From Pocillopora damicornis (Eukaryota), in assembly GCF_003704095.1 (NCBI RefSeq), contig NW_020844379.1, forward strand, positions 1 to 64,000: 64,000 nucleotides of DNA, read 5' to 3'. The notes under the pieces are model-generated. The model made no database searches, had not been told where the DNA came from, and saw only the letters and a program-made list of their open reading frames with translations. Positions 31,105 to 55,266 of the stretch are shown piece by piece. A program made the translations under genes and the position numbers. The stretch's first letter is position 1; the number at the start of each line of letters is the position of its first letter.

Positions 31105-33042
31105 ATGACAGAAAATGCTCCGGATGAAACTCAAAAAGGTCATCATGACATTGAAGAAAGCGAGAAAAAGAAGGAAGGCTGTTGCGCTGTCAATAAGGTT
31201 TACTTGGTTTCCAAAGGATTCTATTTCTTCTTCTTCTCTGCCCAGGGATCATTGTTACCCTATTTGGCCTTATTCTTTAAACAACTCGAGCTGCCTGCAC
31301 GTCAAATCGGAGCAATTACAGGGATTAAACCTTACATCGCTTTCTTCTTCATTCCGTTTTGGGGATGCGTCGCTGATAGATTCAAGATAGGAAAGATAAT
31401 GTTTGTTATCTCTATGATCGCTCTCATAGCAGGCATGGTCGCTTATGCTCTTGTTCCCATCAATATCTGTGAATCAGAGCCAACAGAAGCTCACAGTAAG
31501 CGAGCCCTCTCACAGGAGTCCAACAGAGCGACCTACTCATATAAACTTCACAGACGTTCCACCTGGTATGCATCATCACAATCCCCAGTTACCAAATCAA
31601 CAACCAACATAGATACACAGTCAAGAGTCGTTGATATAGTGGAACCAAAAAAATCAAGATCAAAACGAGCGGCTCTTTTCCTACGGAGGCACTCCCACAT
31701 ACCTAATCTGATACAAAAAGTATCCCCGATAGGGTTAAACGAACAAATGGTAAAATTTAATCAGCTAACTGGCAGAGCAGCGCGACGAAAACGGAACAAT
31801 TTTACGACCTCCTTAGACAGCGTTTCAGAAATGGCTGACGAGTCCCTCGAGGAAACGCCTTGGTCTCAGTCAGATATGATAGCCTTGCAAGACCAGAAAT
31901 CCAAGAAAACTCTATCCAGAAAAAATAAATTTATTTTCCTCTATCTGTTATTAGCAACAATTTTCACCACCCTATTGTCGTGTCCTAGTCTAACACTCGC
32001 GGACACAGCAACTGTGAACCTATTGAAACAGAATGGCGACACGCACAAGTATGGTAAGCAGCGAATGTGGGGTTCCGTTGGTTATGGATCCATGGCATTT
32101 CTAATTGGTGCTGCGGTCAGCAAAACCCACCTGTGTCCTCCTGGCAGCGCAAGAAGAAAGGATGTCAACTACTATCCATGTTTTGCCATGTATGTGGTGT
32201 TTAACATCATTGCTCTAGTGGTAGGATCGAGATTCGAATTTGGTAAGAATGGTAAACCAAATAACAAAGAAACTGTTGGGGATCCGAAAACAACAGAAGA
32301 TAATGCACGTCAAAGCAAAGAGACGACTGGAAGCGGTAACCGAGGCATAATAGCGGGACTCATGCTATTGACACGACCAAGACATGCAATGTTTTTAGTT
32401 ACCGCGTTCTATGTCGGCATTACCATGGGTTTCATCCGGGTATTTCTATTTTGGCACCTGAAAGACCTGGGTGGCACTCAGATTCTCTTCAGTATCATGA
32501 CGGCAATCAACTGCGTTGCTGAAGTGACACTTTATTTTCTTTCTACGAAGTTAATTTCCTTTCTTGGCACTCTAAGGGTGCTCTACCTGGGGTTGACATG
32601 CTATGCCATACGTTTGTTCTACTACGCATTTGTTACCAATCCTTGGACTGTCCTCCCAGTTGAACTGCTGTCTGGCATTACCACCGCGGCTGTTTGGGCT
32701 GCCATGATGTCTTACGTGGGCACTCACTCTGTAGAAGGTGCCTCTGTGACTTTACAAGGTAAGTATCGTTAAGTTATAGAAGAGCTGCTCCATTTATCAA
32801 ATTATTATTTTTAAATTTTCCTGTCACGGTGCAATTCAGTTCATTCGTTTCCTTGTGTATCCTTGCTAGGTATTTTGCATGGTGTCCATTGGGGTCTCGG
32901 TCATGGATCAGGAGAACTCATCGGCGGACTGCTCATAAGCAGCTTTGGTGCTCCCACTGCATTTTCCATATTTGGATCGCTGTGCCTAATTTTAATGGGC
33001 GTTTATATTTTAGTTAACCGTCTGACAAATAACTTAGAATGA
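31105..33042 (+). CDS. MFSD6: MFSD6-like MFS transporter, paralogue 4 (~608 aa, two exons)
   Basis: Exons 31105-32758 and 32870-33042 with a phase-1 intron at TLQ-G|ILHGVHWGLGHG, which restores the last two TMs. Confidence 0.9.
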
Positions 33043-33203
33043 ATTGTACTTCACTGAAACAGCATCCTCAAATGAACCGGACATATTCGAAAACTATTAA
33101 CAAATTCTCACCAAATGAGATTACCATGATGTAAGCCACTTTAAACATTGCACAACATTTTCAGGCTTGATAGACAACAAATTGGCATCAAATTTGATAA
33201 ATT

Positions 33204-33344
33204 CCAGTTGTATAAAGGGCGTATAACGCTATGTAACGGATAAATCGCTATCCAGCGGATAAGTGATAGCTAAACGTATAGCGTTATCCACCTGGTAGAG
33301 TTTTATCCAGTAGATAGTGTTATCCAATCTTAGAACAACCGGGG
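33204..33344. mobile_element. MITE-like element, copy 1
   Basis: ~140 bp with ccagttgt...acaaccgg ends and internal tatcca/ggata repeats. Near-identical reverse-complement copy at 49752-49894. Confidence 0.75.
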
Positions 33345-36300
33345 TCTGGTTGTTAATTCGTTTCTTTAAAAGGGGCTTGTTGCAGTTAATCAAGGCTTTG
33401 GTTTATTTGATACTGAGAGGCATCATCGAATATTCTTAGAGCGAAAATGTACTTCCGTATATTCTTATTTCCAAAAAAAACTCACTGAGGAAAGTTAGTC
33501 CTTTTACGACCTTGAACGAACTTTGTCTGCGGCATTTTGTTTAGGATTCATCTCTGCTATTCTCTGCCTGTCCTGAAGCCAGTTCATATCACTTGCTTTG
33601 TGGTCTTTTTCAACCACCTAACCAGTCTCTATGGCTGGTCTGACAAAAATAAAGCGTGGGAAGGCAAACACGCAGAATTATGAAACGGAAACACTTATCT
33701 CTCCCGATTGCAAAACAAAACGGTGTCGTAGAAGTGTTGTAAAACCCTAGGGATAGGCACATTCTGAGTAAATAGCACGTTAAGTCGAAAAACTTTCTAA
33801 TTAAGTCATAGATGATTATGAAGTTAGTTTCCTTGCCTTACAAAGCCATACAGGGGTAGTCATAAACGTATTCTGGCTGCACAGGATGTAAAGTTATGTC
33901 ACAACATTTCATTGGGCCAAAAATGATCACGGCATTGTAGTTTCGTCTTTACAAAAGTTTTCTTAATTTGAAATTATTTAAAGATTAGAAATAGTAGCTA
34001 TTAAATTGAATTCGATTTCGAGATTTTTTTCTTTCCTTTCTTATCAAAATTTTCCTGCCAATTCGTGAAAATAAAGTCTCGATAACTATGCTTATAAGCC
34101 GCTCGGAAAGTTAAGTTACAATGGATTGTAGTCACGATAAGGTATCGAGAAATTTAAAAACTTTTGTGAGTTTAATTCGTTAAGTTAAGTCGCTATTAAG
34201 AAATGGACTACTTGTCTCTCCGGAAAGCATCAGTCCTAAACCTACGGGTTCAATTCAAATTCCGAGAACTATTCACAAGTTTTCCGCTCTGAAATAGACA
34301 TTGGTAGTTTCTCCGGAGGGCTGAAATCCTGAACTTACAGGTTCAAGTTTTTAAAAACTGAAGCTCTAAATACGTGTGAGCGCACTTTGATAAACTAAGG
34401 CTACCTTAATGTACCGGTCCATAAGATTCTGCGACCATACCTGATTGCGGAGACAAAACAGTTCCTAAAGCTGTGATTAAAGGACTTTACATCCTGTGAA
34501 AATCGCTCTGATATTGAAGTCAAGGATCATATGCTCGATTTCAACACAGTTGTTGGTTTTGTCACAAAAAACGAATCAGAAAGTTAAAAGCGATTTGTTA
34601 CACTGACTGGACTCCAGAAAGTAGGTTATGGAAAGTTTTTCAAATTGGCGTCGATATAATTAATTACTAGTTAAAACGATTTCAGCTAAATGATGGCCAA
34701 GCATGATTAGATTTTTGTAATGATGTAAAATAGAAATGCTTAAATCGTAATTTGTACTAAATCTTGACTTATAAAACAACAAAGTTGACACATAATTTCA
34801 GGAAGCTCTTTTAGACACCTTAAATGTTGTTTCTTTCGGAAATGTTGCTGTTTGTTTGTTTTTCTGTTTTTGGTTGATGGCCTTAATAATTTTGAAAATG
34901 ACCGTTCCATTCCACGCCTCCCCTCCCCTGGTTCATTCCTAGTTCTACCTCAAAATCTTTCTACATTTTCAGTATAGCTGAAACGTATTTATAAAGCAAG
35001 AATTTGGTGGAAATCTTAAGTCAAATCCTAACTCAAATCAAATCGTTATCCTCTTGACCTGCCAGTTCCGTTTACTCACGGTATTGACTTGTTCCTCACC
35101 TATTTGAACAGTCATCACTATGTTGAAGAGTACGGCTGATCTCGTTTCATGGCAGGAAATAACGCATGCTTTACATGTGCACACGCAGTAAAGGGTTGTT
35201 AGGATTACTCTTAAAGGAATTACTGATAAGGTGCATTTCAATCCAGTGTCGAAAAACCAAACCCAAAGAAATCGTACAAGCAACCAGTGAGAAGAACCGA
35301 AAATCAGGAGCTGGTGAGCACTCGAGGTAAAAATAAGCAAAGTGTCTTAAACGCAAGAAATCGTGTGTAAGCCAGGAACTAAAGATTTTAGTTTTGTATC
35401 TGATTGGTTGAGAAGATGACGTAACTTATCTAGACCAAATTTACAATTTTTAGTAAAGATAGAACCATGGAATTGCCGGTCATTTTTAAACATCCTATCC
35501 AAATTTTCTATAAAACCTTTCCATTATTTGTCTACCTCCTCATACTTACATGTTCTTACATGTAATGAAAGAAAAGGTTCTATGCCTCTAATTGCATATT
35601 GATTAACGGCTGTTTTCAGCGTAGACTACGTCCCAGTTTAAATTCTTACGCGAAAAGCCACGTATTTCTAAAAGAAATGTTGGGAAATATGGTGGATGGA
35701 GACTACGTAGCAATGAAAATGAAACCGCATCGAGAGGAATGCCTAAAGTAAATACATTTTTACTTAAGATGTTTCTTCTTTAGTTCTCCGATTGGCTTAC
35801 CCGATCAGCGTGAAAGCCCTGCTCAATTACGCAATTACAAGTTTCCAAAAACTTCTCTCAATTTGCCTAGCTTTCCACTCTGTTTAGGAAATTTGTAGAA
35901 CTGTTACGCCAAGCTACATGGTTACAATAAATGTGGGGAATCAGATTCTTTCGGGCCACTTTCGCTATTAAAGAAGTATCAGGTTGTAGGGTAACGTTCC
36001 AATAGGTTCCGTTGTATCTGCTATTTTGCAACGTTTTGGTGATGGTCTTCAGAAATAATTTTCTCCTTAAATTTGGTTTCCAACTTTTAATACTTTTGAA
36101 AGTGCCCTTAATTATGTATGGTGTTTCTATGGATACACAAGCAAATATGTAACACGCGTTGTGATTTTCAGCTCATTCTCCGCTGACAATTTATCCCAAG
36201 ATCGCTTTACAACCTGTAATATTCAAGAGAATGCAAGGTAAGTATTTTTGGCTTTCTCACTCCTAACTAAACTTATGGGTAAGCGGGGTTTTACTACATA

Positions 36301-37870
36301 CACATGACATACAACTCGGCAAAATTCCTTAGTGTCCACATGATGTTCAGCTTTACACTCGACAACGATAATACGAGAACATCGTCAAGTTACTGAAGAT
36401 AGTGGATTGTGAGAAAACATCATGTCTCTTGTGTGTTTTAGTTCTGACGAGGCAAAGAGATAAACTTTGGCGGGAAGCACTTCCAATTGACAGAGTATTT
36501 CTCGTTTTTGCTGCTACCTGCACTTTTAGTGACGCAGTGGTGAATAGTCTTACTCAATATCAATCTTGACAGGAGAAACACAGGTGCAACCCCGCGGAAG
36601 CTGTCAACTGCCACCTGCAGTCCTAACGCTTGTTCGAAGTGAGACCAGCAATTACCGAGACAATCCAACTCAAACGCTATTCTGCTCGTCTAAATACCAG
36701 AAAACTTAGGAATCAGCCCAGGAATTAATTGGCTTAGTAAGTATATTTCTGTTTTTTTCACCCAGTTTACCGGTTGGATTCTCAACGGCTCTCGAGCTCT
36801 TGTTAAATGAAATTCAGATAAAAAAGCAATGAGTTTACGTAAGAAAGTTTGGACTGGAGAGATACCTTCCGTTTGGTTAAGATAAGACTCTTAACATTTA
36901 GTAAAGTAAATAACCAAAATATCAATTATATAATTTCGTATACTGTTTTGGGAATGAAGGTTTGATTAGCTGGGGGTCAAGGGTTTCCGTTATGTGAAGC
37001 TGGTGTCAGGACAGGTTACTGGAAGGTACCGTTTCAGTCTCAGTAATTAGTAACTGACTAAGTATGTGAATGATATAAAGTTATTAAGATCTTGAGTTAT
37101 ATGTCATATATTTCACTCTTTACTGGCAAGGTTTGAGGCCTTCTTTTTACAGACAACCAAAATATGTTAAATGAATGTGATGATATTTCCTGTAACTCAG
37201 AAATCAAAGTAATATGTTCGATTATGATTTTTCTTGACCGTAGCACACACACAAAATTGAGGCTCCATAATTGGTATTCTGGCCATTTCTTTAGCTGATC
37301 GTGAGCTAAACTGTGATATGCTAGCCAATATGAAGGCTTATTTGACTCGCTGCTGGAATACCCTTCGAACTTTTATGAGGATGCTCCACCCATCCATATA
37401 AATCCTTGCCGCTTTTTGTACTACTTTTGGCTATCATTTGAGTTTGTTACAGCAGATTCAACAGTTTTGATTTCCGTCACATTTTGTGTTTGTTAAATCA
37501 TTACCATTTCCACATACAGTAAGAGGGTACCCTTAAGGATAACGACTAACAATGTAATGATCAGTCCGGTTCGTTGCGATTAATCAGCGAGCTGATGCAA
37601 TGTTGAGATACTGACCTCGCGCCCTGCCCGAAAAAAACCTTCCAGAGAGTTATTTCATGTCTTTCTTTGCAGAACTCACCCTCGAGGGTTTAACATTCCT
37701 TCTCGGCTACTTAGCCACACAATTGAATTCCACAACTGCCTACAAATTGAGAAGTACCCGATGGAACGAGAATCCAATAAATGTACGGCTAGACAGTGGT
37801 GGCGTTTGGACCAGATGCTGCGATAATTCCTTCCTCGTACTAAAGAGGAGGGACGGCGGGAGAGGCGGAG

Positions 37871-37908
37871 AGTAAGTTGCACAAGTAAGTTGCACAAGTA
37901 AGTTGCAC
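37871..37908. repeat. 13-bp tandem repeat (agtaagttgcaca) x3
   Basis: Directly visible. Confidence 0.8.
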
Positions 37909-38357: not shown

Positions 38358-40302
38358 ATGAAAATGCCAAATAAAGAGAGTATCAGCTCTTGTCACCCAG
38401 ATGAAGAATCTAAACAACACAGCGACAAATTCCTTCGCTACAATTGCTTGAACCAGAAATATATTGTTCCAAAGATGTTTTATTTCTTTTACTTTGCTGG
38501 ACTTGGCGCCATAGTGCCATTTTTGCCCTTGTTCTATAAACAATTAGGTCTCCCGGCCAAACAGGCCGGAATCATCTCCGGTATTCAACCATTCATATCG
38601 TTCGTATTTACTCCAATGTGGGGAGCGTTATCGGACAAGACCAAGAGGGGAAAACTGGTATTCGTGATTTCGTTCATTGCTTTAGTAGCTGTTGGAATAG
38701 CTTTTCTGCTAACTCCAATGCCAACATGCAAACACAAAATGAGAGGAGACATTCATCGGGAATCAACATCTGCGAGAAATCAGTCTTTTATTAAAAACAT
38801 GTATCAGTTGATATCAGAATCGCAGAATCTTTATCGATGGTCAATGGGAAGGGAAGAACAGAATGATTTTCTTGTACTCAGTCACGAGCAAGCTGGTCGC
38901 CAGAACAAATTCGATGTATTTTTATACCTGCTATTAGTCAGTTTATTTGGTACACTATTCTCGTGCCCAGGCCTTGCTCTTGGTGATGCTGCTGCTGTAT
39001 GCCTCTTGCGGAATAACAACGATATACATCAGTATGGAAAACAGAAAAGATGGGCCTCAATAGGGTGGGGTTTGGCTGCGTTTAGTTTCGGTGCAATGGT
39101 GAGTGACAAATATTTGTGTCCGTTGGTACCTGGACAAAAAAGAACTATTGACTACAGTTTATGTTTTTATGGCTCCATTTCATTGAAGCTTTTAGCTCTT
39201 TTTTCAGGGCTTCGGCTTGATTTCGGTTTAAACGGTACAGACAGTAGTGATGACACGGTAAGGGAAAAGCACATTGGTGTTATGGCAGCGTTAGAAGCAG
39301 TGAGTCGTCCTCGTTACTTGGCATTCTTTGTAATTGTTCTTTACAGTGGAATGACTTTTGGCATGATCATGGGATTCCTTTTTTGGCACTTGGAAGACTG
39401 TTCTTCCCCACAGATAATGTTTAGCATAATACCTGTTGTGAGATGTATTGCAGACGTCATGGTGTACTCAGTGTCCCCTCACGTTATAACTAAAATAGGT
39501 GTGCATAATTTGCTATACCTTGTGTTGGCGTCTTATGTGGTGCGATTGACAAGTTATGTACTCATTACCAATCCGTGGTGTTACCTTGCCCTTGAAGTTT
39601 TGTCAGGATTAACTTCTGCAGGAGGCTGGGCAGGATTTGTGACGTATATTGCATATAACTCCGTGGAAGGAGCCCCTGCCACTTTACAAGGTGAAAACTT
39701 GCATTTCTGACCCCTGAGTTATGTGTTTTAAGAAGTACGTACACTTTTAGAGCTAAAATATATACCAGTGACCTGTCTTGATAAAAATATATACCAGTAG
39801 CCTGCCTTGATAAAGAGCGATTCTGGCAGTACCAGTAAATAGGGGCATAAACAAAATAGTTGTCCGTTTATAAAACCTGCGAGGAAATGCAAAATGAAGC
39901 AAAGTATGGTTTAACTTGGTTTTGACGTGAAGCGACGTTCTCTTCTTTACAAGTCTGTTGTTCCATTTTAAACCAGTCATAAACTACATCTCTTGATGGA
40001 AATTTCTAATTCTTCAGTAAATTTGAATTGTTGTTTAAAAAACAAGGACTTTAGACAAACGACCTATGGAAGCTTTCTATCCTCAATTCACGGAGGCCAT
40101 GTTGCTTTTCTCAACAGCTATGCTCCACGGTGTGTATCATGGAGTAGGTCATGGACTAGGGCGAGTAATAGGAGGTTTTCTCTTCAGTAGCTATGGAGCT
40201 CAAGTAACATTCTCTATATTTGGTGGCCTCGGGTTAATTATGCTATTGATGTTTGGGTCAGTTAACAAAATATTCGAAGATAAACCAAATGATCAAAGTT
40301 AA
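38358..40302 (+). CDS. MFSD6: MFSD6-like MFS transporter, paralogue 5 (~505 aa, two exons, divergent)
   Basis: Exons 38358-39690 and 40118-40302. The phase-1 intron is at the same position as in paralogue 4 (TLQ-A|MLHGVYHG). Confidence 0.88.
39755..39812. repeat. 29-bp imperfect tandem duplication in intron
   Basis: aaaatatataccagtgacctgtcttgata followed by aaaatatataccagtagcctgccttgata. Confidence 0.7.
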
Positions 40303-40692: not shown

Positions 40693-42372
40693 TTATGTTT
40701 TTGATTTGATCTTGTTTAAAAAAACAAATATTATAAGGATACAAAAGCTTATAAGAGCGTACAAAAGAAACAAAGTCTTCATTTCGGCGAATTGTACAAG
40801 AAATCCTCCTATAAACCCACCAGATGCGAAACCAAGTCCCATGTAAACTCCATTTAGAATTCCTTGAACTGTGTTTGGTACTCCGGGATGCAACCCAACG
40901 TAAGAAACACACGATGACCAGAATGCTGCGGTGGTAATTCCTTGGAGTAATTCCGCAGGTAAAACTGCCCAGGGACTTTTCACGAAGTAGAAGTAAATAA
41001 AGCGAATAGAGTAGCAAAATAACGCGACATAGATAACATTGATGTGTCCAAGAAAACCGAGCAGCTTGTCCGTCACAAAAAACACACACACTTCTGCCGC
41101 ACAGTTTAGCCCGTTCATCACGCTGAATAATAACTGTCCTCCCCCTAATTCGTGAAGATACCAAAATAGAAACGTTTCTATAAATCCCGTAGCTGAACCG
41201 CAAAAAAACGCGATGAACATGACAAAACAGAATTGAGGATTACGAAAAACCTTGAGCCCTTGGAGAATTTTTGGAGTTTTTGAGCCACCTGTGACATTTA
41301 CTTCTTGCTCATCTTTGATAAAAGGCTGATCAAACTGAAATTGAGTTGCGCATACAAACGCCACACTCATTGCCACCGCAAAAACGTAAAAACAAGGCAT
41401 GTAGTTGATGACAGTCTCACCACAACGATTCGTGCGATAATTCGCGCTGACAGCAGCTCCGACAGAAAATCCCCCAATGCCCCAACCCAGAGATCCCCAG
41501 AGTCTTACTCGACCATACTTATGAGATTCACCGTTAAGATTTTGAAGCGTTACAGTATCTGCAAATGCTTGGGCTGGAGCTGCAATCGCCGTACCAATTA
41601 CAGTTACAAGTAACAAGAATAGAAATTCCTTGGAGTCACATTCAACGTACTCATTCTCTGTTGCTATTGCGTTTGAAAAATCTTGAGGAGGCTTTGTAGC
41701 TGAAGGCTCTAATGATGCCACTTCCAGCTGATCTTTCCAGCCGTCATTGATCCTCAGGGCTTCCGCTTCTTTGCCGTGGTTGTGTAAAGTAACGTTATAA
41801 ACAGTCTTCAGATCTTTAAATGTTATAGGTAAGAACGGTACAGTTGTGTCAAGATACGGCGACACTCTGGAAAAAAAATCGTGTTTTCTTGTTTGCTGAC
41901 GAGTAACAGTGTTTGAATCGGAAAAGTTCTCAGTAAATTTAAGTGAGAATGTGCGACTGTTCGGCAATGAAATTTCTCTGTCATCACCATCGTTATAATC
42001 ATTGTACTTGCTGTTGTTATTGTTGTAAAGTTTACACCACTGAGGTTCATCAGTAGTTGGAACTAATGACAATAAAAAATTTGACACTAACCAACCTAAT
42101 ACCGACATCAGAAATATAACCTTGCTTTTGCAAAACCTATCTGCGCATGCGCCCCACAGAGGAGTTACGCAAAACTGAATCAGTGGACGGATACCAATAA
42201 GGATTCCGTTTTGATGGGAAGATAATCTCAGCTGTTTGAAATAAACTGGTAGGTACGGAAACAGTGCCCCAATAGCCACGTAAAATGACGTGTAAAATGC
42301 TTTTGAGAGCCAAAGTCCTTTATCCATGCCAGGAAGAAAACTTTTCTTGCTACTTACTCTTGCCGCACTCAT
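40693..42372 (-). CDS. MFSD6: MFSD6-like MFS transporter, paralogue 6 (559 aa)
   Basis: Complete intronless ORF. Motifs KAFYTSFY, WGACADRF, YGRVRLWGSLGWG, FLFWYLHELGG. Confidence 0.92.
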   Translation of the reverse strand: MSAARVSSKKSFLPGMDKGLWLSKAFYTSFYVAIGALFPYLPVYFKQLRLSSHQNGILIGIRPLIQFCVTPLWGACADRFCKSKVIFLMSVLGWLVSNFLLSLVPTTDEPQWCKLYNNNNSKYNDYNDGDDREISLPNSRTFSLKFTENFSDSNTVTRQQTRKHDFFSRVSPYLDTTVPFLPITFKDLKTVYNVTLHNHGKEAEALRINDGWKDQLEVASLEPSATKPPQDFSNAIATENEYVECDSKEFLFLLLVTVIGTAIAAPAQAFADTVTLQNLNGESHKYGRVRLWGSLGWGIGGFSVGAAVSANYRTNRCGETVINYMPCFYVFAVAMSVAFVCATQFQFDQPFIKDEQEVNVTGGSKTPKILQGLKVFRNPQFCFVMFIAFFCGSATGFIETFLFWYLHELGGGQLLFSVMNGLNCAAEVCVFFVTDKLLGFLGHINVIYVALFCYSIRFIYFYFVKSPWAVLPAELLQGITTAAFWSSCVSYVGLHPGVPNTVQGILNGVYMGLGFASGGFIGGFLVQFAEMKTLFLLYALISFCILIIFVFLNKIKSKT

Positions 42373-43554: not shown

Positions 43555-46500
43555 TCAACGTAGGTACGGTTTTAAGCACTGGTATACTATCTCAGCCATC
43601 TTGTCATAGCCATAAGCGGTAGGATGAAGATGATCATTCCACAAAAGAGCTTGGGTTTGAGGCGCAAGCGAATGTCTCGGAAACTTAGCAGCCAAATCAC
43701 ACAGCACTACATTTCCTTGTGATCTAAGTGCATACTTTCGCAAGTCTTCGTTTAGTCTATTACGCATAACCCACAAGGTCTTAAAACTAGGCCAAGCTTC
43801 GTAAGCCGTTTCCGGAATGGTTAAAAGGAGGGTTCGCGCACCGTACCGGTGTGCAGTTTCATGGAGCATTTCAATATCACTTGTAATTCGTGGCTGCCAC
43901 ACGTTAATTAGCTGAGTCATAAATGAATCATCGTCTCCAAAATTCTTAACATGTGCTACGTCATTAGTTCCACCCAGAATGATTACCCAATCAAATCGTG
44001 AGCTGTTTCCCAATACTTGTGGTAAGCGCTTGGTCATGCTGCCATGTGCCATTTCACGCACTTTTCCACTCGTTTTGACGTAATACTTCAGTCTACCATC
44101 AGAATTCAGTAGTTGACTGAGTCGTTGACTGTAGGGGTGGAAATTTCGCCCATGGTTGAAAAAGCCACTAGTCAAACTATCTCCAAAACATAAAATGTTT
44201 CGCGAGTAAGGATCTGACCTTCGAGGAGAAAAAGATATCGGAGAGGATGCTGGTAAAGACCCTGGTGACTGAACAGATGAAGGTTCTGACTGAGAGACAG
44301 ATGGAGGTCCTACTGGGGAAATCTGTGAATTTTCATGTGGGGGAAAGAACTGCTCCATCGTTGGACGAAATGATGATCGGCCAATGTCCGGTTCTCCAAG
44401 GGTTGGAGGTAGTTGGGTTGTAAGAGTAGGCGTTAGTGGTGTATATGGTGACTGGGGTGGAATCGTCGTTATCACAGTAGTCTTCAACGGAACAGCAGTT
44501 GATTTCGGCTTGGACTTCAATGGAGGTTTCGGAATAAAACTTGTTGTTTTTGCAAGAATTGTGCTGCTCAGGCTATTTGAATCTAAGTTGCCTATGCCTA
44601 ACTTTGATAAAATATTCGTCAAACTTGTCCTGACCATTATTTTCTTGGGTTTAGGAGATGTTCGTTTTGGTGGAAATGATGGCTCTTTTGTCTTATGCTT
44701 CGATTTGATTCCTTGTGCCTGCTTTGTTCTTTTTTTGCCAGCCCTCTGAAGCAGGAGTGGCAAAATGCGTTTCACGATGTCTTGCATGCTTTTTTCCCCT
44801 AATGAATTCTTTGCTGGGGTGGTAATCTTATTCGTTGGTATAGGCTTTTTTGTCGTCGTCTTTTCTGTAGTTGTGCTCTGTGTTGGTTTAGTCTTTACCT
44901 CAGTGGCCTCTGATTCCCCGACGTCATGATCAGCGTTGAGGATTTTAGCTACTACTGCAGGAAGTACTTTGGCCAACAGCCTTTGAATGTTGACCTTACT
45001 ATCCTTTTGGCGATTTTTTGGTTGTCCTGCTGGGTCTCCATTCCTCTCATTGTGTTTGGTTACATTATTTTCTTTTGCATGATTTATCTTTGATGTCGAG
45101 TTATCACTTCTGATGGAGTTGTTGTCTACATTTCTATTTTGCGTAAGAACAGCTTCAAGAGAATCAAAAACATCATCGCTATTTGTTTTGTTTTTCCTCT
45201 CATACGTCCTGGCAAGTTTAAGAACTCGTAAAAGCTTTCCATAGAATAGTTTATCGGGATTTTGAACGTGTTTTTCGCCTCTCTTGGATGAAAGCTTGTT
45301 CTTTTTCATTTCCAAACCACCCTTCACTTTCTTGTTATGTTTCTTCTTCTTTCCACCGTGTCTTTTCTCTGATTTACGTTTCAGGTGGTGACTTTTTTTG
45401 TGCACTCTATGATGATGTATTTTCCGCTTTGTCTCTACTTTGTGGTACTCTCTTGGCTTTTTGATGGAGTTGCGAGTCTTATTTGATCTGAAGCTTTTCT
45501 TTTTGCTGTGTTGCCACGACTTTACTCTCTTTTTCTTTTTTTTGTGACCACGCTTCGAAGATGAAGAGTTTAATTTGAATTTTCTCTCATCCTCTTTCTC
45601 CACTTTACGAAGAAATTCTTGGGATAAACCCCAAACCTTGGTTTCTTTCTCTTTGGTAGGCAGAAGGTTCATGGCATGCGCATAAGAAGGGTCACAAATA
45701 CGCACGTTATATCGTGGAATTTCTATTTCATTGGAAACTGTTTTCTGAATGTGGATAACACCTTTAGTCACGTACCACCTTTTACTGCACAGCTGAGCAT
45801 ATTTGACGGGAAACGTCCGTTGATGGTTTCTATGCCTTACTCTCAACCTTACAGGTCGACATGCGAGTAATGTGTGCAAATACTGCTTTTTGTGACCCAC
45901 AGCCCTTGTAATTTTCACGGTTCCGCGAGTTGCAAAAGTATCAATAACATTACACGTTTTAACGCGATGCCTACTAATATGCCATTTACCTCGAATTTCG
46001 TCACTAAGAGAATGATGCTTTCTGTACCGATGGTATTGCTTGAAATCCAAAATTTTCCCATGCCGCTCATGTGTGACGTGGTGTCCGCCTAACCCTTTTG
46101 AATGACGATGAATTGCATGATCCTTCTTTCTGAAATGATAATGCGAATGCCTTGAGTGACCGGTCTGCACAGTTATCTGTGGATGTGGAATATTTGTCCT
46201 TCTATACTTGTTTGATGTGTCTTGACGTCTCTTATGTTGTGCTTTCTTTTCCAATCCATGATAAGTGTGATAAACCTCAATTTCCGATGAAGTGTGCACT
46301 CGTCTTGATGCAAGGATATGTGATCTATGACGCACTCCTCTAATTGTCGAACCATTATGACGACCCTTACCCAATTTTCGTGTGCCATAACGCTCCTTGG
46401 TTTGCTTTCCCGCTTTCCTCCCAACTTCAATTTTATGATGTCTTGGTGAGGAAGCTTTACTCGAGGCTCTGTTGCTTTCCTCTTCAATATCCTGAATTTC

Positions 46501-47664
46501 TTCGAATTCCGAGTGTTTTCTGAAAGGGCGACTCTGTTTCCTTTTCTTATGTCTTCTGTTTTTTCTTCGAGGCTTCTTCCTCCCTTCCCCGGTATGACTT
46601 GATTGTCGTGGTGATAAACTGACTTTGCTAGAACTTCCTTTAAGGAAGGAAATGAGAGGGGATGGAGTAGTTTCTGCTCCAACGAAATTACTCATGAAGG
46701 GGCTCTCTCCATAATAACCGTTGCTGAAGGAACTTCTGGTCATAGAATTCTTGTTTGAAGGAAAGTAATAGGGGGTTATGTAGGAGACATTAGGTTCCAC
46801 AGGATATGACGACACGGCTGGCTTATCATTTGAAATTCCGACGGAATTGCTGCTATATGGAAGTGGGCGGGAAACCTTGGTTTCAATTGGATAATTTTGA
46901 TTTTCCATCACACCCGCCGGTATTGGAGGCCGAGAATAAAGATAATAAGCTTTCGGATAACGAACTGTAGGTAGAATTGGATTAAAAACAGCGGGGTATT
47001 GTTCTGATGGGTAATTTAACGCTGGCTGAATACTATTGAATGCTCCTTGGTAATAGTTATTGAAGCGTTTTGTCGCCCTCGCTGGAGAAGGCAAAGTTGG
47101 TAAAAGGTTCCTGAGCGCAACATTCCCTCCAATTAAAGGATCGTCATTGTTGGTAACAGATGTAATTTTTTCATGCTCGTTATTTGGTGAAGGAAAATAA
47201 ATTGGAGACGAAGGCCTCTGTTGCGGAGCCTCGTTTTGCGAGGGGTGAAGTTTCTTTACATTTTGATGAAAATGTTCCGTTATGCTTTCTGTTGTCATCC
47301 AAGGATGAGCTGCGGGATAGCCCGTGAGGGCATGCGGCGTGGGACCTAACTTAGTTGTTGATGTAGAGTTACTCGAACCAGGCCTCCGTGTGGAGCGAGA
47401 GTGAGCGCTAACGATTTTCCAAATCGCGTACAAGAATGTCAAAATAAACAAAGAAAAAACGGCATAAAATGCCACAGATCCATATCCTCGGTGACAAGAC
47501 ACCAACGAGCTAAATTTCTCTGCACAGTTAAGGCCATCACTGACTTCTTGCACTCCTGACCGCGCATTCAAATTGTGAATTCGTTTCCACCAGTAACTGT
47601 TTGGTACTGAACGGGACGCAGTGTTTCTAGGCCCGGATGTCCGATTTCCCTGCTCTCCAACCAT
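43555..47664 (-). CDS. Type II membrane protein (1369 aa) with long low-complexity stem and C-terminal SGNH/GDSL hydrolase domain
   Basis: Single 4.1-kb ORF with one TM near aa 62-84. The C-terminal ~210 aa has block I FGDSLTSG, block II Gly (SG), block III LGGTND and block V NDHLHP, so the catalytic Ser-Asp-His is intact. Confidence 0.9.
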   Translation of the reverse strand: MVGEQGNRTSGPRNTASRSVPNSYWWKRIHNLNARSGVQEVSDGLNCAEKFSSLVSCHRGYGSVAFYAVFSLFILTFLYAIWKIVSAHSRSTRRPGSSNSTSTTKLGPTPHALTGYPAAHPWMTTESITEHFHQNVKKLHPSQNEAPQQRPSSPIYFPSPNNEHEKITSVTNNDDPLIGGNVALRNLLPTLPSPARATKRFNNYYQGAFNSIQPALNYPSEQYPAVFNPILPTVRYPKAYYLYSRPPIPAGVMENQNYPIETKVSRPLPYSSNSVGISNDKPAVSSYPVEPNVSYITPYYFPSNKNSMTRSSFSNGYYGESPFMSNFVGAETTPSPLISFLKGSSSKVSLSPRQSSHTGEGRKKPRRKNRRHKKRKQSRPFRKHSEFEEIQDIEEESNRASSKASSPRHHKIEVGRKAGKQTKERYGTRKLGKGRHNGSTIRGVRHRSHILASRRVHTSSEIEVYHTYHGLEKKAQHKRRQDTSNKYRRTNIPHPQITVQTGHSRHSHYHFRKKDHAIHRHSKGLGGHHVTHERHGKILDFKQYHRYRKHHSLSDEIRGKWHISRHRVKTCNVIDTFATRGTVKITRAVGHKKQYLHTLLACRPVRLRVRHRNHQRTFPVKYAQLCSKRWYVTKGVIHIQKTVSNEIEIPRYNVRICDPSYAHAMNLLPTKEKETKVWGLSQEFLRKVEKEDERKFKLNSSSSKRGHKKKKKRVKSWQHSKKKSFRSNKTRNSIKKPREYHKVETKRKIHHHRVHKKSHHLKRKSEKRHGGKKKKHNKKVKGGLEMKKNKLSSKRGEKHVQNPDKLFYGKLLRVLKLARTYERKNKTNSDDVFDSLEAVLTQNRNVDNNSIRSDNSTSKINHAKENNVTKHNERNGDPAGQPKNRQKDSKVNIQRLLAKVLPAVVAKILNADHDVGESEATEVKTKPTQSTTTEKTTTKKPIPTNKITTPAKNSLGEKSMQDIVKRILPLLLQRAGKKRTKQAQGIKSKHKTKEPSFPPKRTSPKPKKIMVRTSLTNILSKLGIGNLDSNSLSSTILAKTTSFIPKPPLKSKPKSTAVPLKTTVITTIPPQSPYTPLTPTLTTQLPPTLGEPDIGRSSFRPTMEQFFPPHENSQISPVGPPSVSQSEPSSVQSPGSLPASSPISFSPRRSDPYSRNILCFGDSLTSGFFNHGRNFHPYSQRLSQLLNSDGRLKYYVKTSGKVREMAHGSMTKRLPQVLGNSSRFDWVIILGGTNDVAHVKNFGDDDSFMTQLINVWQPRITSDIEMLHETAHRYGARTLLLTIPETAYEAWPSFKTLWVMRNRLNEDLRKYALRSQGNVVLCDLAAKFPRHSLAPQTQALLWNDHLHPTAYGYDKMAEIVYQCLKPYLR

Positions 47665-49652
47665 TGACAGCTACATTGAATTCACTGCGAGGCAGAAAGA
47701 GAAAAGGTTTAAGATAATGAATATTGCCAAACTCAAATAGGCATCTATCTGATGTTAGTTTGAAGGTTTAGTGACAATGCTTGCGTTATAATAAAACGAA
47801 ACCGTCTATAACACTGCGAATTGCACGACTCACTGGAAACCAATGTGGGAGGTGTTTGAGGTACATTAGACAACATATCCAGAATAAACTGTACGATTTC
47901 TGAGTAATGCACTGGTTCGTATTTTGGAAAATAGCTATCAGAAGTGTCTTTAAGCTGAGAGGTTGCAAAGGGCATTGTTGGAATTAAAGGGTGGAAATTC
48001 TTTCAAGCACTACATAGGACAAAAGCAGCCATCCCAGCTATTGACTTCAGATCTACTAGAGCGAAGCAAGAAGTCCATTTGTATGATCTCTTTGCTTTAA
48101 TAGACAAACAAGTTGGTTAAACATTCATTCGACCGCAACAGGTGTGTAAATTGTGAAACTAACACGACTGCTTGTTCAAGCAAGTGGCATGAACCAATAA
48201 CCTGACAAAGACAGAGCACATTTGTGATCAAAGCGACGAAGGAACACAAAACAAGGTAGGAAACTTTGCCGTGGAATTTGAACGATCCTCGGTGAAAAGA
48301 AATTATACTTACTCTAAACCAGCCAACGTACTCAGAGAAGCCTTTTGGGCGTACCCGTTCTGCTAAGATGATAAGTTGTTGACCTTCATAAACCGTCAAA
48401 TTTTACGCTATTCCTTGAATAGGCAAATTAAATTGCCTTTGCTTCTCGCTGACGCCGATTTCTCTGGATCTCAACCAAGAATCTTACTGGTATTTTAAAA
48501 CCAAGACGAAGAACTTGCTGCCACACATGAGGACGAGCTTCGGCAGAGGATTTTCAGAGAAAAACTACTATACTAAAATGGAAATGATGTGCGACAAAAA
48601 TTGTCAAAAATGAGGTCATATCGTCGTTTGGGAGTTTCTGAGATTCGTCTTTTAAGCCCAATGTTTTCCTTCATAAATTTATGGTAAGGATTCTATTACA
48701 CTAATCTCTTTTGATTTCTTTTCTGCTTGTTTGTATTTTTTGAAAATCAAGCTATAACAATCACAGAGACTATTTACGAAATGGCAAAGGAACGTATATC
48801 GATACAATTAAAAAATGGAGCTTCTGAAACATCTCCTGTAAATTCAACTTTCTTATAAAATTCATTTTGCGTAAAATTTATTGTATGCTAGTCCCACTTT
48901 GATATGTAGAAGTACAGTGGCTCTCACGGAACCGCAAACGAGACATACGTGGCTAGGACTAAAGTGCTTTTTCTTTAAATATAATCACTAAATAACGTCA
49001 TGCACTAAGCCAAAGGAAACGCCATATTTCATAAAAAAAAAACTCCACCCATTATAACACACAATTATGTTTGACGGGTTTTGTTGGTACGTTGAGTTAA
49101 TGGAAAGAACGTTTCAAGATGATTGGATGAATAAATTGAATCAAATATCTGTAGTAAAACAACTATAATAAAGACAGTATGGGGACTAAAAACGGTAAGA
49201 ATTCATGATGGGAAAAATGTGATGACGCACTCGGCAAAACTGTGTAAGCTTCGTCCTGAGGAACTTTTTGAAAATAGATCAATCCGCCTGGAAAAGTGAA
49301 ATAACGACCCCCTCGATGGTAACAGATATACAGGTGTAAAAGTACGACTGGGAAAGCGCAGATTAAGAAAGAAACGAGCCAGAGAAGCGTAATTTTACGT
49401 CTGCTCTTTTGACTTTCGCCCTTGTTCGCATTGCGCCGCGCCGCCCGAGAAAGTTTAGATAAGCGTCTCAAACAAACTGTTTAACCAAGCCTTAAAGTAG
49501 TAAATGAGTTCTCAGTAATCGGACCCTTCTTTTGGCGCAAAGATTTATGGGATCGCCGGGGGGTCAAACTCTGCAAGTCGCTAGAACCAAAATAATGGCG
49601 AAAGCTTATTTCGACGTCCAAATCCACGATTTTGGAGAGAGATCAACCAATC

Positions 49653-52600
49653 ATGTCAGAAATGGATTTAGTCGATGTTGATATGATGGAACCGTAAGTT
49701 TTCGTTTAAAATAACTACGAAATATGTTTTAAAATATACCGATAAACTTGTGGCCCGGTTGTTTGAAGATTGGATAACGCTATCCACTGGATAAAACTCT
49801 ACCAGGTGAATAACGCTAAACGTTTAGCTATCACTTATCAGCCGCATAGCGATTTATCCGTTGCATAGCGTTATACGCCCTTTATACAACTGGGTTATGT
49901 CCTTGTGTGAGGTTTATTGCAGAATCATGATCGTGTAATGATCTTTAAATATTACAAAGTTAGCCATTTATCGCTGGGAAATAACTCAATAACCTCTTTT
50001 TTGCCCAAACGCAAGAATCCGTTAACTGGCAACTCGCTTCTTACCTTACATATGCATACCTCAATACCTCTTAGCAGTAATCTGTTTAAGAATAGACTGA
50101 GAAAACTTTATCTGAAGGAAAATTACGGGGGCTGCGTGGTTCAATTTACGCGTCATAATCACATAGCGATCGCTATCATGACGTCATAAAACAATGATGA
50201 CCAACCAATCCAGTAATTGATTTTTCTGATGCATTGGAAATCTGTTTTGATAATTGAACTGCATGCAATTTAACCTTGTTTGGTAAGTAGACCTCTTATT
50301 ATCATTTGAAGTTTGAAGAGAGTTGATCGTTTTTATTCAACAAATAAAGAAGCCGTGACTGTGCTCTGTCCTGTTGCAAAGCACACAGCTAGTGGATAGA
50401 GCTTGAAGAGGGAAACATAGGACGTCGTCGAGTGTTTCTCCCTACTTCTTGAGTGCCAGGTTCCCAGGTTCTTCCTCGTCAAAATTGTTCAACAATGCGA
50501 TTGTTTGAATAGGACCAAAGCTGTCAAAAATGTCAAACCATCAAAGTTCACGATCTGCGATACAGTCAAACCTATATAAAGCGAAAAACGGCAAGGTGAC
50601 CCCTAAATGCAGGTTGACCGCTTAACATAAGTTCCACAGATAAAAGGATGAAAATTCAAGAATAAAAAACGCCATTTTATCATGCTTATGCCATAATTGA
50701 TCTTAACATACAACCATTAGCTGTGACTGATGTGGACTTCCACCCAACGCATCGGGAAGGATATCAGAGCAAGCTGAGCAAGCTTTTAGTTTTCACTCGA
50801 AGGGCGGACGGTGTAATTTCTGAGGCTTGTTTCGCTGCAATGACCGGAGCCGCGATGGATGAAGGCATGATCGCAATCGCTCAGACACCATCATGATTTC
50901 TAAGTTATGCCGGTTTGGTTATATTTTTCATCATGAGTGTTTTGTTCTGTTTTGTTTTTGAACACTAGACTATATATATCATACGAATGTTAGCTGTGAT
51001 TGAGTTTCATTACCGTACGCAAGCTTACAATCAAACTGAGCGTCAAAACCATTAAAACTCGGACTGTCGATTTCGTTTTCTCTTTGGTGATTTTCGTCTC
51101 TGCTCACGTTATAATAACGTCAATTACGGCGCCTAGCATGTTTAAAAACTTTTGTTTGGTTCCTCTGTTCCTACTTGCCAGCTCGCGAAATTTCATTTTC
51201 AATTAACGAAAAAAAGTTAGAGAGAAGTCCGGAAAACGGACGGACAAGGTACAAATTGGCAAATGGTGTGACAGCTTCAGCTCAGCTCCGTTTTTTTGTA
51301 CTGTGATAAAATACGCCCTTTCAACAAATTTCAGCTCGCTTTTTATCGGAACTTTATCATAAATAGATTAATTATTTTTTGCGGCATTTTACCATTCAAA
51401 GAGTTTATACATTGGTGGGGGTATATCAAGATAGTTTGGTTCTATTAACTGAGTTGATAATGTAAATTGGCCACTGAAAAAGCTAACATTTCGAACATTC
51501 GCCCTTTACCATTCGCCCTGGGGAACGGCCAATGCTCGAAACGTCAGCTCTAGAAACTCTTTACGGTGGCCAGTTTACATCGTAAACTCCGTTGAAGAAA
51601 CTCAAAAAAGAAAATTGTTTGTTTTAAAGAAAAGACGGACTTAGAAAAAGCGTCAGTTTTTTAGACTGCTCTGATCAGACCAACATCAGTTACCTTTCTT
51701 ATCATTCCATATCAACTAGAGCAGTACATTTGTCCAGTTATACGACACTCTCGACAAATATCTAATCTATCTGAAAAAGCAAGTTCCCTCTTGTGAGCCA
51801 GTGCCAAAATGTAAACGGTTTAAAGTCAAGTAAAGCTGTCTCCCTAGTAATCAATAACTAAGTTTAGCAGTGGAAGAAATGTGATTTGCGAAAGGACGCC
51901 AATCTTATTGTAAAGCAACAGTCCAGCTCTATCTATCACATGACTCGGAGAGTAGACAGTAACAGCACATTTACTTTTAACATGGTAATGCTTTGTTAAA
52001 GAGCAATTAAACTTTTAACCTGGGGGAAAGTCATCATTTTTTTTCGGTCTTCTACGCTGGAGTGTGAATTACGCATCAGAAATGGGGAAAATATTGTTCG
52101 CTCTCATTCTATCGCGGATAGTTTCACTTTGCTTTCGCTTTAAGGTCGCTTGAACACGCTAAAAACCAAATGACACCTATACTTCAGGTCGATGAAATGT
52201 TCATCGTTGTTTCGCATAATCATTGAGCAACTGAAGCACTGTCTTTTAAATTCACCTGTGCTCTTACAGGGTTAATTTTGGTTTAATTCATGTCATTTCA
52301 GTGGACCCTTAGTAACCGTGAAACAAATGAAAATTTCAAAAATAAGCCAAAGGGAACGATAAAATAAAAACTAAAAAAAAACGGAAATAAAAGGGGAACA
52401 AACTCGGAGCGTTACAGTTGAATTTTTCTTTTGTTTATTTACAAGAAATCAACTGACGCTTAAGTTTCCAAACAATTGCTGAATAAATGTCAATTACGGG
52501 CAGAGCGGAGTGTTTCTTCGTAACAAAGTGAAGTGACGCTTTCAGCTGGTACCTGTGAAGTGAGAAAAATGAACAGGTTGTTTGACTTTGTCTTTGAGCA

Positions 52601-55266
52601 GCTGTAAAATGATGATCGGGAAAGTAAGATTGGAGCAGCAGTTTAAACAAGAGGAGGAGAGGAGTACAGAAGAAACGATTTCAGAAGATCAAAAAATTAA
52701 AAGGGAAAGTACAGCAATTGAAATAGAGAGCGAGGAAGAGTTGTACGGATTGGCTCTCATACTCCGTAACACAGAAGACGCCGCCAAAAAGAGCCGTGAT
52801 TTGACAGGGATACCAGATAAAGAGCGGTCTGATGATCATGAAAGCAGTAGAGGAGAGAAAACAAATGGACCGTCTGAAAACAAAGAGAAAGCCTGTTTAA
52901 GATGTTGTCAAAATATTAACAGAAGCCTCATTATTTACAAAAGTTTTTACTTCTTTTTCTTTTCGGCTGTGGGTTCTTTATTTCCTTATCTCGCAGTGTT
53001 TTATAAACAGCTATGGCTTTCCGCCCATGAAACAGGAATACTGATCGGAATCAGACCATTGATTCAGCTTTTCGGAACGCCTATGTGGGGAGTCATCGCA
53101 GATACATACAAGAAAAGCAAAGTGATCTTTGTGGTGTCACTAGTTGCATGGTTGGTATCGAACTATTCCTTGTCTCTCGTATCTCCTGTTTTTCATTTGG
53201 GCGTTTGCAATGATAACGCTACCTTAACAATCATCCAAGAAATTATGAAAGAAATGAAAAACAGAACGATCTCACAGAAGAATAACACAACTCATCATAA
53301 ACATTCTACGCATAAACCCTCCATACCTCTTTCAGCAAACTCTGGAAATTCTAGTAATCATTGGTTTGAGATAGTCAGGAAAGAGAGGGCAAAACATCCT
53401 TCGAAGCGAAACGCAGGTCAACCATTGAAGTATACACTTCAAAACAAAGTAAACAAAGTGCTTCAGGTAAATTATCATGTAAACATTTTGTACGATTTGA
53501 TGGAAAAAACCGACAGTACTTTGGTTTCTAAAAGAGGAATCAAACAGATACATCGATTTTTAGACAGATCAACACTCCATACAAGTAGCCCCCCGATAGT
53601 GAACAAGTCAATGGTTCGTAAGCGAAGTGTTTATAAAGGAAGATTTCTTCATGCGTCACTCAACGATAATCAAAGAGGGAGCAATAACAAACGTCTAATC
53701 ACAATAGGACAGTGCTTCAAATCGGGCAGTGATGAACAAAGGTTACGCCGAGCCAGCTTGGATAAAAGCGCACTGATGTCCAAACCAGATATCTTAACAC
53801 TTTTCATGAATTCAAGTAGTATCAACGAGGACGGGGTTTTCATTCAATTTTACAGCGGATGGATGGAAAGAGTTTTCGACTCCCTGAACATGGCTGGGGA
53901 GTATCCATGGCCTCTGGACACAGTGGCGGACTATGAGTCAACACAGGAGGCACATGAGTGGCTAAATCCACATGATCATGACTTGTTTACCATCCTGTTT
54001 GTTATCACAGCTACTGGTACACTGATTGCTGCACCAGCTATTACCTTAGCTGACACTGCCACACTGCAGAAGCTTGGTGAGTATATTGAAGTTGTCGATA
54101 TTCAAAAATTTTCTTGATTATTTCTTTTGGGAACATACGTAAACTTTGTTGTGATACCTTGTTTTACTTCTGAGTAGATTTTTTGGGTAAAGCAATGAAA
54201 TACGTTATTGATATCACAACACTACTGATAACATGTATAAGTAATAGTGGTGGTACTAGTGGTAGTAGAAGTAGTCATAGTAGTAGTAGTAGTGATCGTG
54301 ATCGTGATCGTGATCGTGACCGTTATTATGATTGTATGTTTTCCTTCGTAAGGTAACAGGCCAGAGGACTACGGCAAGCAGCGTTTATGGGGAGCGTTTG
54401 GCTGGGGACTAGCAGCCTTTATTGTTGGATCAAGTCTAAGCACAGTTGAGGAACTGAGTAACTGTAACAATCCTTTGAGTGTAGATTACCTGCCATGCTT
54501 TTACGCTTTTGCGTGTCTAATGGGCGTGGCTGTCTTGATTGGTGCTTTGTTTGAGTTTGACGAAAAAGAGTTACACGAAAGTAGCATCTGGCAAGGGCTT
54601 GCATTGTTGTGTGACTGTCAATATATATACTTCATCTTCACAATTCTGTTCTGTGGAAGTGCACTGGGCTTTATAGAAACTTTCTTGTTTTGGCATTTGC
54701 AAGATTTAGGCGGTACACAGTTCTTGTTCAGTACCATCACTGCCATCCACTGTATTTCTGAGGTGGCAGTTTACAGTTTTTCTGGTACGTTCATCAAATG
54801 GCTAGGGCATCACCGGGTTTTGTACGTTGGACTTTCATGCTATATAATCAGATTTTTTGGCTATGCCCTTATAACAAACAGCTGGGTGGTACTACCTTTT
54901 GAGATCCTTCACGGCTTGTCCACAGCAGCCGTATGGTCAGCGGCCGTCGTCTTCGTGGGACTCATTCCCGGGGCGCCTGCAACAATGCAGGGAATTCTTG
55001 GTGGTGTGCACTGGGGTCTGGGTAATGGTGGTGGAGGAGTGCTCGGTGGATTATTAATCACTTACGCTGGTGCTACCACCTCTTTCCTCATATTTGGAGT
55101 AATCAGCATAGTAGACTTGAGTTTATTCATACTTTTGAACAACATGGAATTTTTCAACTGTTTTGAGTGGTCCAAAGGGAGTGGTACACAATCAGAGTAT
55201 AGTCCAGTAGAAGATGAAGCCTATAAAAATGAAAAACTAGAACCAGATTATGACGATCTTTACTGA
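49653..55266 (+). CDS. MFSD6: MFSD6-like MFS transporter, paralogue 7 (~809 aa, very large luminal loop)
   Basis: Exons 52602-54076 and 54353-55266 join in phase 1 (LQKL-G|NRPEDYGKQRLWG). Tentative first exon 49653-49693 (MSEMDLVDVDMMEP, phase 2, cc|gtaag) fits the acceptor at 52602; otherwise the start is ATG 52609. Confidence 0.82.
49752..49894. mobile_element. MITE-like element, copy 2 (inverted relative to 33204-33344)
   Basis: Reverse complement aligns with 33204-33344 along its whole length with few mismatches. Confidence 0.75.
51437..51602. repeat. Imperfect palindromic repeat resembling Penelope/retrozyme-type elements with a decayed hammerhead core
   Basis: Outer arms aactgagttgataatgtaaattggccac / gtggccagtttacatcgtaaactccgtt; inner arms agctaacatttcga / tcgaaacgtcagct. 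Confidence 0.5.
54242..54319. repeat. Compound microsatellite (tag)n + (gtgatc)n in an intron of paralogue 7
   Basis: Directly visible. Confidence 0.8.

Follow-up and report, generated by a model that had tools for sequence, protein, structure and literature searches.

Can a multi-pass membrane transporter be cut by a furin-type convertase in one of its own loops and persist as two chains? This question is raised by a stretch of 64,000 nucleotides from the coral Pocillopora damicornis (RefSeq assembly GCF_003704095.1, contig NW_020844379.1, positions 1 to 64,000), termed the window below, which carries a tandem array of seven MFSD6-type transporter genes. A preliminary description of this DNA had noted a hypervariable loop with furin-like basic sites in these proteins, and had proposed that its cleavage yields a split transporter and released peptides. 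On balance, comparison with related sequences favours a convertase-cleaved, probably disulphide-tethered two-chain transporter, with a spacer that would be discarded and would not be a source of hormones.

Seven MFSD6-family transporters and their variable loop

Six-frame open reading frames (ORFs) and motif scans place the seven genes within positions 19210-55266 of the window. They are listed below with the loop in question, L3, which lies between transmembrane helices (TM) 3 and 4; 'strict' denotes the furin consensus R-X-[KR]-R, and lengths are in amino acids (aa). The introns of paralogues 4, 5 and 7, one each, were placed from GT/AG splice signals and homology.

19210..20847, minus strand: paralogue 1, single exon, 545 aa; L3 loop 20484-20182 (101 aa), no dibasic site
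24174..25709, plus strand: paralogue 2, single exon, 511 aa; L3 loop 24528-24731 (68 aa), no dibasic site
28168..29757, plus strand: paralogue 3, single exon, 529 aa; L3 loop 28504-28767 (88 aa), one KR ahead of the Cys, strict site absent
31105..33042, plus strand: paralogue 4, 608 aa; exons 31105-32758 and 32870-33042
31453..31923, plus strand: paralogue 4 L3 loop, 157 aa, predicted disordered; Cys at 31468, PW at 31858
32134..32136, plus strand: paralogue 4 Cys344 in the outward TM5-TM6 loop, putative disulphide partner of the L3 Cys
38358..40302, plus strand: paralogue 5, 505 aa; exons 38358-39690 and 40118-40302; L3 loop 38712-38906 (65 aa), without PW and without dibasic site
40693..42372, minus strand: paralogue 6, single exon, 559 aa; L3 loop 42063-41638 (142 aa), without PW and without dibasic [KR]R site
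52609..55266, plus strand: paralogue 7, 793 aa; exons 52609-54076 and 54353-55266
53179..53973, plus strand: paralogue 7 L3 loop, 265 aa, 7 N-glycan sequons; Cys at 53206, PW at 53905
54463..54465, plus strand: paralogue 7 Cys in the outward TM5-TM6 loop, putative disulphide partner of the L3 Cys

All eight MFSD6 ORFs matched PF12832 (MFS_1_like), with 94-281 bits per ORF or exon against a cut-off of 25.2. The nearest named matches of the array are 'MFSD6-like' proteins from Stylophora, Acropora, Nematostella and Hydra; for paralogue 7, it is that of Stylophora pistillata (79%). The two-exon layout of paralogue 7 was found again in two further loci (L001 and L005), and six RNA runs hold half or more of its sequence words, in contigs only, which is not counted as proof of expression.

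On a FastTree tree with midpoint root, all seven genes belong to one cnidarian clade, from which bilaterian MFSD6 is separate. A Nematostella protein clusters with paralogue 3; paralogue 7 is joined by proteins of Nematostella, an octocoral and Hydra, and paralogue 6 by those of Acropora and Montipora. Because of this grouping, the seven are old cnidarian members of the MFSD6 transporter family. One-to-one orthology with human MFSD6 was not found on this tree, and they are co-orthologues at best. Indirect evidence indicates that the array is kept in Nematostella, Acropora cervicornis and several ENA assemblies, in which different paralogues agree in the length of their longest contig; the JGI loci reach across two paralogues too little to show synteny. 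With the MFSD6 / MMR2 / jef family (PF12832; TC 2.A.1.65) the window proteins share the domain, the long extracellular TM3-TM4 loop and a Cys at the loop start. They differ from it in their seven tandem copies within a clade of their own, in a PW motif, and in basic sites at unfixed positions.

An AlphaFold (AF2) model of exon 1 of paralogue 4, built on 123 sequences and spanning TM1-10, reached a predicted local distance difference test score (pLDDT) of 75 and a predicted template modelling score of 0.75; a single-sequence model (pLDDT 44) was rejected. Foldseek matched the model to NorA, LacY and NupG, and with TM11-12 assigned by alignment the protein is predicted to adopt the major facilitator superfamily (MFS) fold, with 12 TM in two six-helix halves. 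The variable loop follows helices 31-60, 65-93 and 96-115, with disorder from there to about residue 269 and pLDDT below 50 across most of residues 140-232 in this one modelled paralogue. Model and homology thus identify it as the outward TM3-TM4 loop, the counterpart of human 'L3', with the N-terminus taken to be cytosolic, as in all MFS proteins; the TM3-TM4 loop of human MFSD6 is long and extracellular (PMC5627054). The luminal orientation proposed earlier is upheld. The placing of the loop after a fourth helix is not, since a loop there would be cytosolic; the extra segment likely stems from Kyte-Doolittle peaks, which alone split or missed helices.

The differing loop lengths of the seven paralogues are borne out: 101, 68, 88, 157, 65, 142 and 265 aa, where 102, 69, 90, 158, 67, 145 and 266 had been given. 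The loop had also been said to open with a Cys and usually to contain PW. A Cys does lie 6-15 residues into all seven loops, and PW occurs in five, in the pentamers quoted (LPWAL, LPWPL, KPWSL, TPWSQ and YPWPL). Across the family, PW is found in 144/157 cnidarian, 0/32 ecdysozoan and 2/119 fish loops, and 364 of 374 proteins have a Cys in each of the two outward loops. Orthologues agree at about 90% of residues in the PW end of the loop (53905 and the last approximately 45 residues in paralogue 7; 31858 in paralogue 4), and in the paralogue 4 model an acidic helix (residues 235-246) lies ahead of it. This element may be a plug or a ligand-binding part that remains on the TM4-12 half.

Mid-loop identity is mostly 13-30% between paralogues and genera, and to this extent 'hypervariable' is apt. 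The ratio of nonsynonymous to synonymous substitution rates (dN/dS; Nei-Gojobori, window plus 5 of 14 loci) was obtained for 15 pairs, of which the distant ones have a dS above 1. It ranges from 0.32 to 0.61 for the variable loop and from 0.08 to 0.17 for the rest of the protein, and no pair reaches 1. The variability is one of relaxed purifying and not of diversifying selection; at the level of the region, positive selection on the loop is rejected.

Basic sites across the MFSD6 family

The case for cleavage is strongest among bilaterians. Strict sites in L3 loops were compared with those in cytosolic regions of the same proteins, and expected counts were taken from within-loop shuffles; as the sets contain related species, shuffle p-values overstate independence. 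In fish (the best 120 of 814 matches), 108/120 loops carry a strict site, with 136 sites against 3.6 in shuffles (cytosolic regions: 1 against 3.9). Ecdysozoans have one in 23/33 loops, with 30 sites against 1.5 (cytosolic: 0 against 1.0). Enrichment in these two groups is 20- to 38-fold. Among representatives at 50% identity (141 given, 114 parsed) the site is found in 36, with 50 sites against 5.8 (cytosolic: 4 against 3.1). Carriers include hagfish, frog, abalone, snail, tubeworm, nematode, ticks, horseshoe crabs, a priapulid and a nemertean.

Furin sites are expected to prefer S, D, A, E or G at P1', the position following the cut. These residues follow 105/134 fish, 25/30 ecdysozoan and 34/49 representative sites, against a background of 0.27-0.32. 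A two-site layout (two or more RxxR or KR, then S/D/A/E/G) was found in 75/120 fish loops (1.3 expected; spacing 16-36 aa) and in 17/33 ecdysozoan loops (1.0 expected). Conservation of basic sites despite loop divergence is therefore what the bilaterian proteins display, and bilaterian MFSD6 is probably cleaved.

A profile of four vertebrate loops found human L3 in the PDB (E about 5e-6); it was reached by profiles A4 and A5, and missed by paralogue 3, profile A1 and one gar loop. Its residues R196-E-K-R199 form a strict site, aligned with the conserved vertebrate one. Human MFSD6 is an orphan transporter whose substrate is not known (PMC12911884), and its L3, unstructured and heavily glycosylated, is the receptor segment for enterovirus D68, with virus-bound density that starts at N200 (segment N200-V208; PMC13503871). 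The strict site directly precedes this residue. Human L3 is the same loop as in the coral, likewise disordered and glycosylated; it differs in having a single site, directly ahead of N200-V208, and beyond the Cys there is no sequence likeness.

Proteomic data on secreted human L3-Fc include Glu-C peptides across K198-R199-N200 (two rows), and a glycopeptide at the upstream T156 was detected (PMC13503871, supplement 4). Its table holds 70 rows at sites below 200 and 2119 at 200 or above, numbers that are unreadable as a cut fraction. No peptide beginning NLLETRL is listed, which is uninformative, since peptides of this kind would probably have been excluded by the enzyme settings of the search. 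Working decoys of the MFSD6-Fc and Fc-MFSD6(L3) types are named in a review (PMC13211311); because the latter type works, a free N200 appears not to be needed. The word 'furin' does not occur in the available text and supplements of PMC13503871, nor in the available parts of PMC12452593 and PMC12911884. No publication tying MFSD6 to furin was found in the literature searched, although the 2025 discovery papers (Nature, Cell Host Microbe), outside this search, may already note the site; bioRxiv titles and abstract openings held nothing on cleavage of the MFSD6 loop.

L3 varies in other ways as well. In Penaeus, isoform X2 (P0107-P0109) has a 49-aa L3 from which the whole site-flanked spacer is missing, hinting that splicing can mimic spacer excision in these annotated shrimp forms; bee jef isoforms (P0216/P0607/P0608) also vary in L3 length. 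An unnamed MFSD6-like group (P0296, P0301, P0303-P0306, P0309, P0311, P0329) has L3 loops of 350-640 aa that share GFF[KR]RS close to their start, which gives this separate subfamily a fixed dibasic site. In another subfamily (P0213, P0268, P0328, P0342, P0344, P0346, P0349, P0351), L3 is a domain rich in Cys that is probably folded, and the TM5-TM6 Cys and furin sites are for the most part missing.

Basic sites in the coral array

The basic sites that had been reported in paralogues 4 and 7 are all present. The furin consensus is met by three of them only, namely RSKR and RRKR in paralogue 4 and RLRR in paralogue 7; VRKR, SKR and NKR are plain dibasic sites, and the other five paralogues are without strict site. 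Paralogue 4 has two dibasic sites beyond those reported (31546-31557 and 31678-31689).

31492..31503, plus strand: paralogue 4 SKR; Arg invariant in 25/25 orthologues, dibasic in 13/25, R-X-[KR]-R in none
31657..31668, plus strand: paralogue 4 RSKR, strict; strict in 1/25 orthologues, [RK]-X-[KR]-R in 7/25
31783..31794, plus strand: paralogue 4 RRKR, strict; strict in 1/25 orthologues; an N-glycan sequon (N232) begins two residues downstream
53398..53409, plus strand: paralogue 7 first SKR; a dibasic site at most 4 residues away in 20/35 orthologues (background 6.7), strict in none
53524..53535, plus strand: paralogue 7 second SKR; nearby dibasic site in 14/35
53614..53625, plus strand: paralogue 7 VRKR, without Arg at P4; nearby dibasic site in 22/35, nearby strict site in 10/35
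53683..53694, plus strand: paralogue 7 NKR; nearby dibasic site in 14/35, Arg in the same column in 2/35
53740..53751, plus strand: paralogue 7 RLRR, its sole strict site; nearby dibasic site in 24/35, [RK]-X-[KR]-R in 18/35, strict in 3/35

Three strict sites in seven loops compare with 0.3 expected, and none of 300 within-loop shuffles reached three. Taken alone, paralogue 4 gives p=0.01 and paralogue 7 p=0.12; these values are post hoc, the motif having been chosen by eye in the preliminary description.

Paralogue 7 and its relatives provide the better coral case. Its parsed orthologues carry a strict site in 15/32 (33 given), with 17 sites against 5.4 expected, and their cytosolic regions have none against 2.4. 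KR outnumbers RK by 91 to 46, and [RK]-X-[KR]-R occurs somewhere in the loop of 33/35. Counts of KR and RK are non-specific on their own, fish cytosolic regions having KR 150 times against 46.6 expected, yet RK 136 times. Other cnidarians of the paralogue 7 clade have 13 strict sites against 3.1 expected, in 11/25 proteins (cytosolic: 1 against 0.2). The two-site layout is found in 16/32 coral orthologues against 4.8 expected (shuffle maximum 9). Within the genus, 12/12 near-identical alleles keep all five basic sites, and 12/264 loop positions vary among them. The clade as a whole has an excess of sites, yet RLRR itself is strict in few orthologues, and conservation of the sites is at most partial. 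The clade appears to keep several convertase-type sites at drifting positions, and the chances that paralogue 7 is cleaved are about even.

Paralogue 4 fares differently. Both of its strict sites are retained in 7/7 near-identical alleles and each is strict in a single orthologue of 25, so they look like recent genus-level gains, in a loop that appears to have been lengthened in stony corals; the expectation that these two sites would be conserved has failed. The two-site layout is found in 5/25 orthologues (3.4 expected). Cleavage of paralogue 4 is less likely than that of paralogue 7, and somewhat less likely than not. The invariant Arg of its first SKR sits 11 residues past the loop Cys, in a block only 28% identical. 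It may serve in processing, as a monobasic or dibasic site, or make a structural contact.

A number of observations weigh against cleavage, or against extending it to corals. It is reported nowhere in the literature examined, and none was seen by any tool. The human peptides across K198-R199-N200 imply that part of the secreted L3-Fc is uncut. Fish and coral sets consist of related species and are not independent draws, and some bilaterians are without strict site (beetles, with NKR-S alone, and the Penaeus X2 isoforms). Short-loop cnidarian proteins have a site in 3/69 cases and the paralogue 6 clade in 0/8; cleavage is therefore not required for the fold. Exceptions to the two-Cys rule number only 10, mostly divergent proteins, too few to test for co-loss of the Cys pair. 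On the FastTree tree, 37/60 tips of the main bilaterian clade carry a site, against 7/48 in the separate cnidarian clade holding all window genes (15 other tips lie outside the count), so the coral sites may not be homologous to the bilaterian ones. Coral P1' residues are not furin-like, with S/D/A/E/G following 2/17 sites in the paralogue 7 group and 3/13 and 1/5 in further coral sets. In the paralogue 4 group, finally, 5 strict sites compare with 3.1 expected (p=0.24), and KR (36) shows no bias over RK (41).

These coral results could mean that the basic sites there are by-products of a long glycosylated loop, rich in Lys and Arg and under weak constraint, that the proteins stay uncut or are nicked without consequence, and that selected furin sites are confined to bilaterian MFSD6. 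The paralogue 4 clade, with neither excess nor KR bias, fits such an origin, as do the P1' residues, the low constraint on the loop and the five paralogues without strict site. Anemone orthologues of paralogue 4 have loops of 64-67 aa and no strict site, and several coral sites adjoin N-glycan sequons. By-products would not explain the excess of strict sites, the twofold KR bias and the near-universal [RK]-X-[KR]-R of paralogue 7 orthologues, nor the dibasic sites kept at three of its columns (20-24 of 35 against a background of 6.7), nor a window count above all shuffles. This explanation is possible but, on this evidence, rather unlikely.

The stronger form of the earlier proposal, in which the loops serve as precursors from which multi-site cleavage frees peptides for signalling or defence, is very improbable. 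Peptide release needs two cuts, and the two-site layout is indeed far above chance in fish, in arthropods and other ecdysozoans, and in the paralogue 7 clade; paralogue 7, all of whose sites are kept among alleles, could shed four pieces of 19-42 aa. The pieces between sites, however, are the least conserved parts (13-26% identity to orthologues), differ in length and are not repeated. No amidation Gly pattern is visible in the alignments, the conserved Cys and PW regions remain on the membrane halves, and the ESM Atlas gave no usable look-alike of the paralogue 7 loop, which is weak evidence. Because spacer sequences vary freely, the spacer is more probably discarded than bioactive. Also very improbable is a pathogen-binding surface whose diversity and basic sites stem from decoy shedding or an arms race. 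The loops do differ strongly between paralogues, and a virus uses human L3 as its receptor (PMC13503871), but dN/dS stays below 1 throughout, the clades of the paralogues are old enough to include Nematostella or Hydra proteins, and allele variation within the genus is slight.

Further features of the window were noted. The C-terminal tails of paralogues 7 (55195-55266; YSPV, YDDL) and 3 (29720-29757; YSEI) contain YxxPhi-like motifs, which suggests possible endosomal or lysosomal sorting; YDDL/YDDF of the paralogue 7 tail is seen again in Stylophora and Porites. The paralogue 7 intron contains short tandem repeats of GTA and GTGATC units (54245-54320). Inside the array, on the minus strand, a single ORF of 1371 aa (43555-47670) encodes an N-terminal hydrophobic segment, a long stretch of low complexity rich in His, Lys and Arg, and at the C-terminus a lipase domain of the GDSL/SGNH type (PF13472), with 15 KR, 14 RK and no strict furin site. 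Long low-complexity ORFs, Pro/His/Gly/Tyr-rich and acidic, at 2055-3428, 6802-7350, 11641-12243 and 15465-16499 (plus strand) probably represent exons of at least one secreted protein; no Pfam match was obtained for the two that were scanned.

A possible course of processing and its meaning

In the favoured two-chain reading, furin or a related convertase would cut L3 after its basic sites, in the Golgi or in an endosome, as the site statistics suggest. The halves would stay assembled, with TM1-3 packed against TM4-6, and the loop-start Cys, which lies upstream of every site, would probably be bonded to the Cys of the TM5-TM6 loop. A single cut would only open the loop, while two or more would release a spacer of indifferent sequence. 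The likely purpose would be maturation: by analogy with Dispatched, a bulky lid over the outward cavity may be removed, or trafficking controlled. Cleavage in this coral would be uneven, with multiple sites in paralogue 7, recent sites in paralogue 4 and no furin sites in the other five. The split transporter proposed at the outset is therefore plausible and best supported outside corals, the paralogue 4 sites having failed on conservation.

Known systems offer partial parallels. In the alpha and gamma subunits of ENaC, two convertase-type cuts free an inhibitory tract from an extracellular loop; ENaC is an ion channel with 2 TM per subunit, and its released tract, unlike the MFSD6 spacers, is conserved and functional. 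Dispatched 1 is a 12-TM transporter in which a furin cut in an extracellular loop relieves steric hindrance (PMC8630017; PMC5811216). This is the arrangement proposed for MFSD6, although Dispatched 1 belongs to the RND superfamily, has folded ectodomains and a protein cargo, and its cleavage is proven. DIRC2/SLC49A4 and CLN7/MFSD8 are MFS-fold proteins that occur as processed fragments (PMC5546430); they differ in being cut by lysosomal proteases such as cathepsin L and not at conserved furin sites.

A wider proposal is tentative and, taken as a whole, unlikely. MFSD6 across animals would be a furin-matured, disulphide-linked two-chain protein, from which double cuts excise an inhibitory spacer, with paralogue 7 as an independent multi-site version. 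The human protein would be cut between R199 and N200, enterovirus D68 would dock on the freed end, and transport as well as display of the receptor would be adjusted by way of convertase activity.

MFSD6 has lately become a drug target as a virus receptor, without a known substrate. If cleavage is absent, an ordinary tandem array of orphan transporters remains. If MFSD6 is made as a pro-transporter, the processed form is the one to use in transport assays and in the design of antibodies and decoys, and the start of the virus-bound segment right after a conserved furin consensus becomes a point open to a one-mutant test. The coral array itself provides a natural experiment: one fold whose loops range from 65 to 265 aa, some of them with cut sites and some without.

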